From: Escherichia coli
Lineage (GTDB): Bacteria > Pseudomonadota > Gammaproteobacteria > Enterobacterales > Enterobacteriaceae
Strand: one strand, 5' to 3'
DNA: 64,000 nt
Assembly (NCBI RefSeq): GCF_003334305.1
Contig: NZ_QOWS01000002.1
The notes beneath the pieces are model-generated. The model was not told the DNA's origin and ran no database searches. It saw only the letters and a list, made by a program, of their open reading frames with translations. Each line of letters opens with the position of its first letter. Positions within the stretch are counted from its first letter, which is position 1. This document shows, one piece after another, positions 11,336 through 49,170 of the stretch. A program made the translations under genes and the position numbers.

Positions 11336-13015
11336 ATGAAACAGAAAATTACGGATTACCTGGACGAAATCTACGGTGGAACATTTACCGCAACTCATTT
11401 ACAGAAACTTGTAACGCGTCTTGAGAGTGCGAAACGATTAATTACACAGCGACGTAAAAAACACTGGGATGAAAGTGATGTCGTGTTAATTACCTATGCC
11501 GATCAATTTCACAGCAATGATTTAAAACCATTACCCACATTTAATCAGTTTTACCATCAATGGCTGCAAAGCATTTTTTCACATGTTCATTTGTTGCCGT
11601 TTTATCCATGGTCATCTGATGATGGCTTTTCGGTAATTGATTATCATCAGGTCGCCAGTGAAGCGGGGGAGTGGCAGGATATTCAGCAACTCGGTGAATG
11701 CAGTCATTTAATGTTTGATTTTGTCTGCAACCATATGTCGGCAAAAAGTGAATGGTTTAAAAACTATTTACAACAGCATCCAGGTTTTGAAGATTTTTTT
11801 ATTGCCGTTGACCCGCAAACCGATCTCAGCGCCGTCACTCGCCCGCGTGCGTTACCGTTATTAACGCCATTCCAGATGCGCGATCATTCAACGCGCCATT
11901 TATGGACCACCTTTAGTGACGATCAAATTGACCTGAATTACCGTAGCCCTGAAGTGTTGCTGGCGATGGTGGATGTTTTACTCTGTTACCTTGCGAAAGG
12001 TGCTGAGTATGTCCGCCTGGATGCCGTTGGCTTTATGTGGAAAGAGCCGGGAACAAGCTGCATCCATCTGGAAAAAACACATCTGATTATCAAACTGTTA
12101 CGGTCGATTATTGATAACGTTGCGCCAGGTACAGTGATCATTACCGAGACCAATGTTCCGCATAAAGACAACATTGCTTACTTTGGCGCAGGCGATGACG
12201 AAGCACATATGGTGTACCAGTTCTCGCTGCCGCCACTGGTGCTGCATGCGGTGCAAAAACAGAACGTTGAGGCGCTTTGTGCGTGGGCGCAAAACCTGAC
12301 ACTACCTTCCAGCAACACCACCTGGTTTAACTTCCTCGCCTCTCACGATGGCATCGGGCTAAACCCGCTACGGGGCTTGTTGCCTGAAAGCGAAATATTA
12401 GAGCTGGTCGAGGCGTTACAGCAGGAAGGTGCATTAGTAAACTGGAAAAATAATCCCGACGGTACACGCAGTCCGTATGAAATAAATGTGACCTATATGG
12501 ATGCGTTAAGCCGCCGTGAGAGTAGCGATGAAGAACGTTGCGCCAGGTTTATTCTCGCCCATGCGATTTTGTTAAGTTTCTCCGGTGTGCCAGCGATATA
12601 TATTCAAAGTATTCTTGGCTCGCGTAATGATTACGCAGGTGTCGAAAAACTCGGATATAACCGTGCGATTAACCGTAAAAAATATCACAGTAAAGAGATA
12701 ACCCGAGAACTGAACGATGAAGCTACATTAAGGCATGCGGTATATCATGAGTTGTCGCGTTTAATTACACTTCGTCGCAGCCATAACGAGTTTCATCCGG
12801 ATAATAATTTTACCATTGATACGATTAATTCATCCGTAATGCGTATTCAAAGAAGTAACGCTGATGGTAATTGTCTGACTGGATTGTTTAATGTCAGTAA
12901 AAATATTCAGCATGTAAATATTACTAATCTGCATGGTCGGGATCTGATTAGTGAAGTTGATATATTGGGTAATGAAATAACGCTGCGCCCCTGGCAGGTT
13001 ATGTGGATTAAATAA
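11336..13015 (+). CDS. ycjM: GH13-family sucrose-phosphorylase-like enzyme (glucosylglycerate phosphorylase)
   Basis: Track ORF 11309..13015 trimmed to ATG 11336 (MKQKITDYLDEIYGG...) giving 559 aa. Confidence 0.88.
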   Translation: MKQKITDYLDEIYGGTFTATHLQKLVTRLESAKRLITQRRKKHWDESDVVLITYADQFHSNDLKPLPTFNQFYHQWLQSIFSHVHLLPFYPWSSDDGFSVIDYHQVASEAGEWQDIQQLGECSHLMFDFVCNHMSAKSEWFKNYLQQHPGFEDFFIAVDPQTDLSAVTRPRALPLLTPFQMRDHSTRHLWTTFSDDQIDLNYRSPEVLLAMVDVLLCYLAKGAEYVRLDAVGFMWKEPGTSCIHLEKTHLIIKLLRSIIDNVAPGTVIITETNVPHKDNIAYFGAGDDEAHMVYQFSLPPLVLHAVQKQNVEALCAWAQNLTLPSSNTTWFNFLASHDGIGLNPLRGLLPESEILELVEALQQEGALVNWKNNPDGTRSPYEINVTYMDALSRRESSDEERCARFILAHAILLSFSGVPAIYIQSILGSRNDYAGVEKLGYNRAINRKKYHSKEITRELNDEATLRHAVYHELSRLITLRRSHNEFHPDNNFTIDTINSSVMRIQRSNADGNCLTGLFNVSKNIQHVNITNLHGRDLISEVDILGNEITLRPWQVMWIK

Positions 13016-37591: not shown

Positions 37592-38542
37592 TTAATCGTC
37601 TTCTTCGTCATCCAGTTCAACGGGTGTCTGATACTGGTCAGGTTTAATGACCAACAGATCGCAGCGAAGATGATCAATCACCTGTTCCGCCGTGTTGCCG
37701 AGGAATGCTGCTGAAATACCGGTGCGTCCTACCGTGCCCAGAACCACAATCCCCGCCTGTAAGTGCTCCGCCAAATCAGGAATCACCTCTTCTGGCAGAC
37801 CTTTTTCTACGTGCGTCATGTTTTCATTAATGCCGAATTTCTGCCGCAGAGCTTTCATTGCCAGCAAATGTTGCCCACGAATGGCATCGTTATAAACGCT
37901 CGGATCAAATTCCGGCAGTTCAATCGCGATATTAATTGGCGTTACCGGATAAGCGCCAACCAGATGAACTTCGGTATGGTTGACTTGTTCTGCCAGTTCG
38001 ATCGTCTCTTTGACCAGTTTTTCATTGAGCGCATTATGATACGGCTCTTCACTGGCGAGATTCACCGCCACCAGCGCCTTGCCTCCTTCCGGCCACGGCT
38101 GGTCTTTCACCATCCACACCGGGCTTGGGCATTTGCGTAACAGATGCCAGTCCGTTGGCGTAAAAATCACCGCTTCCAGACGGTCATGTTGGTGCGCCAT
38201 TTTTAGCACCAAATCGTGCCCGCCGCTGATCACTTCCTGAATGATGGCTTCGAAAGGACGGTTATGCCAGACCACTTTAATTTCAATGGGAACGCCAGCA
38301 TTGAGATAATATTTTGCCTGCTCGTGGATCCAGGCTGTACGCTGGCTGATGACGCCCTGACGCATAGCCGTACGTTCGTCCGGGGAGAGCAGGGTGGTCA
38401 TTTCGTATGAGAAGTCATAGATCGGCAAAAAGGCTTTAATTTTGCCACCAATCCGTTGATGTAAATAAACAGCTCGCCGCAATGCTGGTTGGTCGTCCTG
38501 GTTAGGATCGATAACAACGAGCATGTTCTGATACATAGCCAT
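37592..38542 (-). CDS. uspE: universal stress protein E (tandem Usp domains)
   Basis: Track ORF 37592..38569 trimmed to the ATG at 38540-38542 ([17 protein letters not shown]...) giving 316 aa. Confidence 0.92.
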
Positions 38543-38693: not shown

Positions 38694-39446
38694 TCAGGCA
38701 ACATTACGCGTATGACCAGCAAGCTGGGCCAGCGCATCGTTATTTTCGATGGTGATGTATTTACCTTTGACTGCCAGCATACCGCTTTTCTGGAAGCGAC
38801 CTAGCAGACGGCTGATGGTTTCTACCGTCAGGCCCAGATAGTTACCGATATCGCCACGAGTCATCGTCAGGCGGAATTCACGAGGGGAGAAGCCGCGTTG
38901 GGCAAAACGACGGGACAGGTTGTAGATGAATGCAGCCAGACGTTCCTCGGCATTTTTCTTCGACAACAGCAGGATCATGTCCTGATCGCCTTTGATTTCA
39001 CCGCTCATCAGACGCATCATCTGCTGACGCAGATTCGGCATTTTACCGGACAAATCGTCCAGCGTTTCGAACGGGATTTCACATACCATCGAGGTTTCCA
39101 GCGCCTGAGCGAAGCTCGGGTGATGGCCGCTGCCGATGGCGTCAAATCCCACCAGGTCGCCTGCTAAATGGAAACCAGTGATTTGCTCGTCGCCTTGCTC
39201 AGTGATGGTATAACTTTTAATCGTACCGGAGCGGATGGCATAAAGCGATTTAAGTTCATCACCAGCCTTAAACAGCGTCTGGCCTTTCTGAATAGGCTTC
39301 TTCCGCTCAATGATATTATCAAGCTGATCAAGCTCATGTTCGTTGAGTGTGAACGGGATGCAAAGCTGGCTGATGCTGCAATCCTGGCAATGGATAGCAC
39401 AACCGCCAGACTGAATGCGCCGTATAATTCGCTTTTCCGGGATCAT
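38694..39446 (-). CDS. fnr: anaerobic global regulator FNR (CRP/FNR family, Fe-S cluster)
   Basis: Track ORF 38694..39503 trimmed to the ATG at 39444-39446 ([31 protein letters not shown]...) giving 250 aa; N-terminal Cys cluster and C-terminal HTH. Confidence 0.96.
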
Positions 39447-39465
39447 AGGTCTGCTCAAGCCGTAA

Positions 39466-39479
39466 TTGATATTTGTCAA
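39466..39479. promoter_or_regulatory. FNR box in the fnr promoter (autoregulation)
   Basis: TTGATATTTGTCAA, a near-consensus TTGAT-N4-ATCAA site 20 bp upstream of the fnr start codon. Confidence 0.6.
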
Positions 39480-39640
39480 TTTTAACATCTTTTTAGGGAG
39501 CAAGTAAGTCTAAGCAAACCTTAACAGCAGAGAATTCCGATATTAGATGTAAATATATGTCTATCTATTTGAAAACCCTTAAGTTGTTAAGGGTAACTTT
39601 ACATAAAAGTGTGAACAAGCTGGCACAAATTGTTTAATGT

Positions 39641-45570: not shown

Positions 45571-45671
45571 ACTGCATAAAAAAATAGAGTCTGTCGACAT
45601 CCGCCAGACTCTACAGTACACACAGCAGTGCATCCGCGTCTTAAGTCCGGCATTGTCTCCTCTGCGCCGGT
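45571..45671 (-). ncRNA. mcaS: Hfq-binding small RNA McaS (IsrA)
   Basis: Reverse strand reads ACCGGCGCAGAGGAGACAAUGCCGGACUUAAGACGCGGAUGCACUGCUGUGUGUACUGUAGAGUCUGGCGGAUGUCGACAGACUCUAUUUUUUUAUGCAGUU, matching the McaS sequence as I remember it, ending in a hairpin plus U7 terminator. Ends are approximate (a few nt). Confidence 0.8.
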
Positions 45672-49048: not shown

Positions 49049-49170
49049 GCAGGTGAATGCAACGTCAAGCGATGGGCGTTGCGCTCCATATTGTCTTACT
49101 TCCTTTTTTGAATTACTGCATAGCATAATTGATTCGTACGACGCCGACTTTGATGAGTCGGCTTTTTTTT
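49049..49170 (+). ncRNA. fnrS: FNR-activated small RNA FnrS
   Basis: GCAGGUGAAUGCAACGUCAAGCGAUGGGCGUUGCGCUCC...GACGCCGACUUUGAUGAGUCGGCUUUUUUUU matches FnrS as I remember it, ending in a hairpin plus U8 terminator; track ORF 49047..49265 over it is judged non-coding. Confidence 0.85.

Follow-up and report, generated by a model that had tools for sequence, protein, structure and literature searches.

The closest described system is the fnr promoter of Escherichia coli K-12. In the work of Mettert and Kiley, footprinting and in vitro transcription reportedly established that [4Fe-4S]-FNR bound at the downstream FNR site is sufficient for repression, reportedly by competing directly with RNA polymerase, and this site is said to be required for repression of fnr in vivo. 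By the same account, the predicted upstream site is unbound by FNR, and the upstream region is bound by IHF, which is said to raise the activity of the promoter (Pfnr).

Genome-wide data exist for the same promoter. Myers et al. (2013, PMC3688515) list TTGATATTTGTCAA for fnr at MG1655 position 1397570 together with an FNR ChIP peak (their Table S6), and the peak at 1397630 was found by both ChIP-chip and ChIP-seq (Table S5). FNR peaks were retained in that study only if absent from the Δfnr control. In Table 1 of the same paper, fnr belongs to Category 2, the operons that FNR represses directly, with one site, centered at −0.5, and decreased σ70 occupancy; Mettert & Kiley 2007 is cited there for binding and regulation alike. 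σ70 ChIP-seq occupancy at fnr is 2645 aerobically and 1172 anaerobically (Table S2), a change of about 2.3-fold. Table 1 also marks fnr with an 'o', which stands for no >2-fold change in expression between the anaerobic and aerobic wild type, and the effect of FNR on fnr is modest. Autoregulation of E. coli fnr is also noted by Ravcheev et al. (2007, PMC1805755), whose comparative predictions place Fnr sites upstream of this gene in Yersinia, Pasteurellaceae and Vibrionaceae.

The locus described here lies in a stretch of E. coli DNA of 64,000 nucleotides, analyzed as a whole and called the window below (Table 1). Its fnr coding sequence is 100% identical to the RefSeq-annotated fnr (WP_000611911.1), and the translation contains the cluster ligands, which are the N-terminal Cys16, Cys20, Cys23 and Cys29 together with Cys122, and the recognition helix E209-x-x-S212-R213, as in E. 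coli FNR. The local gene order in RefSeq is uspE, fnr, ogt, abgT, all on the − strand, in an E. coli chromosome. The 1.6 kb surrounding the operator matches many E. coli chromosomes with 100% identity, and 5404 of 5426 complete genomes contain this segment. Six of the matches to the fnr region in the E. coli collection are on plasmids, not chromosomes. In DTU-1, an in vitro laboratory strain, the core promoter is matched only in part and the annotation over the match is abgT, pointing to a rearrangement or deletion at this place.

The 14-mer upstream of this gene is, almost certainly, the operator of the fnr promoter, at which the binding of FNR blocks polymerase and lowers the transcription of its own gene under anaerobic conditions.

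Table 1. Features of the window, with coordinates counted from its first nucleotide
Feature	Position	Strand	Source or remark
fnr coding sequence, 250 aa	38694–39446	−	ORF translation; RefSeq match
fnr 5' untranslated leader, 26 nt	39447–39472	−	Transcription start plus RefSeq ATG at 39446
FNR operator	39466–39479	−	TTGACAAATATCAA on fnr sense strand; TTGATATTTGTCAA on + strand
fnr transcription start (+1, an A)	39472	−	Kim 2012, supplementary file 2
−10 hexamer TAAAAT	39484–39479	−
Extended −10 element TGTTAAAAT	39479–39487	−	Read from sequence
Weak −35-like hexamer TTACTT	39502–39507	−	Inferred from spacing (17-bp spacer to −10)
IHF-like core TTTCAAATAGATA, 7/9 to WATCAANNNNTTR	39562–39574	−	Overlaps proximal half of upstream FNR-like element
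Upstream FNR-like element TTAAGGGTTTTCAA, 7/10	39569–39582	−	Sequence; centre −103.5
Perfect 8-bp hairpin ACCCTTAA-CAAC-TTAAGGGT, then TTTTC	39576–39595	−	Downstream of ogt stop
One-mismatch FNR match TTGATTATCATCAG	11637–11650	+
One-mismatch FNR match TTGATGTAAATAAA	38456–38469	+	Within uspE coding region
sRNA McaS/IsrA	45576–45671	−	RF00115, 117.6 bits
fnrS FNR site TTGAGCGAAGTCAA	49000–49013	+	Centre ~42 nt upstream of FnrS 5' end
sRNA FnrS	49049–49166	+	Rfam RF01796, 135 bits
uspF FNR site TTAATTTAGATCAA	52555–52568	+	Myers 2013 Table S6 (PMC3688515), MG1655 1433720
sRNA MicC	53977–54097	+	RF00121, 125 bits

The FNR operator and the fnr transcript start

The operator reads TTGAC-N4-ATCAA, with half-sites TTGAC and TTGAT when read on the two strands. 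It matches nine of the ten specified positions of the FNR consensus TTGATNNNNATCAA (TTGAT-N4-ATCAA), and the single departure is a C in place of T at window position 39475, which is operator position 5 and position −3 of Pfnr. Counted from the fnr ATG, the near edge of the operator lies 20 bp upstream, leaving 19 nt between the two. A sequence-only reading of this DNA had named a near-consensus FNR site 20 bp upstream of the fnr start codon, and both the match and the distance hold.

The fnr entry in supplementary file 2 of Kim et al. (2012, PMC3415461) places the transcription start at NC_000913.2 position 1397576 on the − strand, with a 26-nt 5' untranslated region, and the 51-mer given there upstream of the start ends with ...TTGACAAA. 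Window coordinates equal U00096.2 coordinates minus 1358104, a conversion taken from the site position 1397570 of Myers et al. (2013). The mapped start is the eighth base of the 14-mer, and because of this the operator spans −7 to +7 and is centered at −0.5. The final T of the −10 hexamer lies 7 nt upstream of the start and doubles as the opening base of the FNR site. The proposal that this FNR site covers the fnr core promoter or the beginning of its transcript is thus supported: the start lies inside the operator, the −10 hexamer ends at the operator's outer edge, and a far-upstream start with FNR-independent expression, which would have spoken against the proposal, is not what the data show.

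A scan for σ70 consensus promoters between positions 38500 and 40300 called no promoter. The scan missed the fnr promoter because its −35 element is weak and it relies on an extended −10, so the empty result reflects a shortcoming of the method.

FNR bound at this position could also act on transcription that arrives from ogt, as a roadblock to read-through, besides or in place of occluding Pfnr. A terminator consensus gave no hit in the spacer that separates ogt from fnr. The sole hairpin in this spacer, with a folding energy of −10 kcal/mol (for a folded segment of 55 nt), overlaps the upstream FNR-like element and is unconserved even within Escherichia, being disrupted in E. coli E69 and in E. 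albertii. A roadblock can be entertained as an addition because there is no conserved terminator between the two genes. Against it stands a strong primary transcription start within the operator, with an extended −10 element of its own that is conserved, and we consider the roadblock improbable. In the lineage of the window, the hairpin may terminate transcription of ogt. A terminator of ogt overlapping the FNR-like element is not claimed as a feature of the locus, given the disruption of the hairpin in E69 and E. albertii.

Conservation of the operator

Of 5400 E. coli genomes, 5266 carry the 64-nt core promoter at an identity of 99% or more. A scan across species, with a single genome for each, found 80 loci, 79 of them with upstream sequence, and ranged from Escherichia, Citrobacter, Salmonella, Klebsiella and Enterobacter to Dickeya, Pectobacterium, Serratia, Sodalis and Yersinia. 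An FNR site matching at least nine of ten positions occupies the equivalent place in all 79 Enterobacterales loci, and its distance to the ATG is 19–20 nt in 73 of the 79 species. Operator positions 1–4 and 10–14 are invariant, and position 5 is a C in 78 species, so that the ten contact positions together carry one substitution across the entire set. The exception is Salmonella enterica subsp. arizonae, which has a 10/10 match to the FNR consensus at the same place and the sole perfect TTGAT. Spacer positions 6, 7 and 9 vary, with three to four different bases each. The fourth spacer position, position 8, is an A in 79 of 79 species. Since it is the initiating nucleotide, every invariant column of the operator is accounted for. 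Across orthologous promoters, the contact positions of this FNR box are thus kept and its spacer positions drift.

Outside the operator, all 79 species have the TGNTAAAAT of the −10 region, and the TTAC core of the −35-like hexamer is conserved across species. Beyond about −40, the upstream intergenic region is poorly conserved, and the fnr leader 3' of the operator varies among species.

Could constraint on the core promoter alone, i.e. on the edge of the −10 element, the discriminator, the start nucleotide and the initial transcribed sequence, account for this pattern, with FNR binding being incidental and of no consequence for regulation? The operator does share bases with the promoter, namely the final base of the −10 hexamer and the A at +1. 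Both are invariant, and the hexamer and the initiating nucleotide can explain part of the conservation at positions 1 and 8. The small change in steady-state expression points the same way. However, the invariant bases form a perfect dyad, TTGA...TCAA, with a variable middle, a pattern that marks a dimeric regulator and not a discriminator or leader. The leader 3' of the operator is variable, FNR is bound in vivo, and σ70 occupancy falls anaerobically. We regard an explanation by the core promoter alone as very unlikely, and slightly more so than the roadblock.

The use of the operator by CRP, a paralogous regulator, in place of FNR is less probable still. FNR and CRP sites are related inverted repeats: the CRP core is TGTGA-N6-TCACA with a GTGA half-site, and the FNR half-site starts with TTGA. 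Sites for the two proteins overlap at a few promoters (Myers et al. 2013, PMC3688515). The half-sites of the operator start with TTGA, and neither GTGA nor TCAC occurs in them, so a CRP site is excluded; moreover, the FNR ChIP peak is missing from the Δfnr control.

By motif count alone, the operator does not rise above chance. The window contains four FNR matches with at most one mismatch, against 3.09 ± 1.84 expected, and at least four matches were found in 33 of 100 shuffles of its sequence. Any given 60-bp stretch is expected to contain about 0.003 such matches (by arithmetic from the window scan). The operator stands out by its position and its conservation, decisively by the latter, and not by the motif count. 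A chance, functionless match, with which the count and the shuffles agree, has a negligible probability and is excluded by half-sites that are invariant in 79 species against poorly conserved intergenic DNA further upstream, by the ChIP peak and by the published classification as directly repressed.

Two of the further one-mismatch matches, both listed in Table 1, lie elsewhere in the window, one of them inside uspE; the number of one-mismatch matches that includes these two is at chance level.

The upstream element

A second FNR-like element is annotated at −103.5. FNR-like sequences with at least seven of ten matches occur at an offset of 100–107 in 27 of 79 loci, compared with 0–11 in control windows. 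The conserved portion of the element is its proximal WWTCAA only, and together with a following N4-ATR it resembles the core of an IHF site. IHF-like sequences with at least eight of nine matches were found at the offset of the upstream element in 23 of 80 sequences; control windows mostly gave 0–4, with higher counts of 18 and 10 in two of them. The element is probably not an operative FNR operator and, judged from its letters across the species, in most genera it looks more like an IHF-type core than an FNR site.

The recurring WWTCAA-N4-ATR fits the binding of IHF to the upstream region that Mettert and Kiley reportedly found. Two negative results count against it. A search of the fnr–ogt spacer for the exact IHF consensus WATCAANNNNTTR found none, the best match being 7/9. 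No IHF ChIP-chip peak near 1397.3–1397.8 kb was found in the tables, including Table S4, of Myers et al. (2013, PMC3688515).

In two Kluyvera species, a perfect FNR consensus TTGATAYATATCAA is found at −103.5, at a distance of 103 bp from the main site, and the sequences there are TTGATACATATCAA and TTGATATATATCAA. Tentatively, and with the odds against them, two suppositions may be made: that the conserved C at position 5 is selected to keep the main operator sub-maximal, and that in some lineages the −103.5 element works as a second operator in its own right. A sub-maximal operator would mean that repression trims FNR only at high levels of active FNR, and a second operator of this kind would imply cooperative or looped autorepression in those lineages. 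The alternative for the conserved C is that it merely reflects a constraint on the discriminator.

Mechanism and comparison with known FNR promoters

The preferred reading is that of FNR autorepression at the operator. Without oxygen, dimeric [4Fe-4S] FNR would bind the TTGAC-N4-ATCAA of the fnr promoter and cover −7 to +7, where it would touch the last base of the −10 hexamer. FNR in this position would sterically block either the binding of σ70 RNA polymerase or the formation of the open complex, and the blocked polymerase would in turn produce less fnr transcript, i.e. negative autoregulation. We infer that the precise step is steric occlusion and not a later block, and that the purpose of the loop is homeostasis of the FNR level. 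Negative autoregulation by promoter occlusion was also the interpretation offered from the sequence alone, and it gains support from the transcription start within the site, the FNR ChIP peak, the listing of fnr as directly repressed and the lower anaerobic σ70 occupancy.

As a discovery, the site carries little weight. It is the textbook autoregulatory site of a model regulator and has been mapped, verified by ChIP and mutated in the literature; transcription start mapping and fnr'-lacZ fusions in fnr+ and fnr− backgrounds under anaerobiosis are already published. The present analysis confirms the observation and supports its earlier interpretation at an autorepression site that is already known. 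It can serve as a positive control, operator and mechanism having been named correctly from the sequence without tools. It also provides a clean example of a transcription factor footprint, in which an invariant dyad flanks a spacer that drifts everywhere except at the transcript start.

The window also contains the FNR sites of fnrS and uspF. The FNR site of fnrS is at MG1655 position 1407104 (Myers et al. 2013, Table S6, PMC3688515). The distance from the fnr site to the fnrS site is 9534 bp in both the window and MG1655, and that from the fnr site to the uspF site is 13,089 bp in the window versus 36,150 bp in MG1655. Thus, about 23.06 kb is missing between fnrS and uspF relative to MG1655. 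In view of the size of the Rac prophage, this fits its absence, and the strain of the window appears to be without Rac.

Several FNR-repressed promoters share features with fnr. The promoters of ndh (site at −50.5) and of can and hisL (−11.5) are repressed by the same regulator through the same consensus and also show decreased σ70 occupancy (Myers et al. 2013, Table 1, PMC3688515). Unlike at fnr, where a single site is centered exactly on the transcript start, the ndh sites lie upstream of the core promoter, and the geometry of repression is therefore different. Class II FNR-activated promoters, such as that of fnrS, are bound by the same protein at the same kind of inverted repeat, but their sites are centered at −41.5. 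The fnr operator is centered at −0.5, not near −41.5, so FNR bound to it would be unable to contact σ or α productively and would block the promoter instead.

The site described here and the −0.5 site of fnr in K-12 (Mettert & Kiley 2007; Myers et al. 2013; fnrp in RegulonDB/EcoCyc) are one and the same, with an identical 14-mer, distance to the ATG, transcription start and flanking genes. Relative to MG1655, the strain of the window shows no difference at the site and differs elsewhere, apparently in its lack of the Rac prophage.
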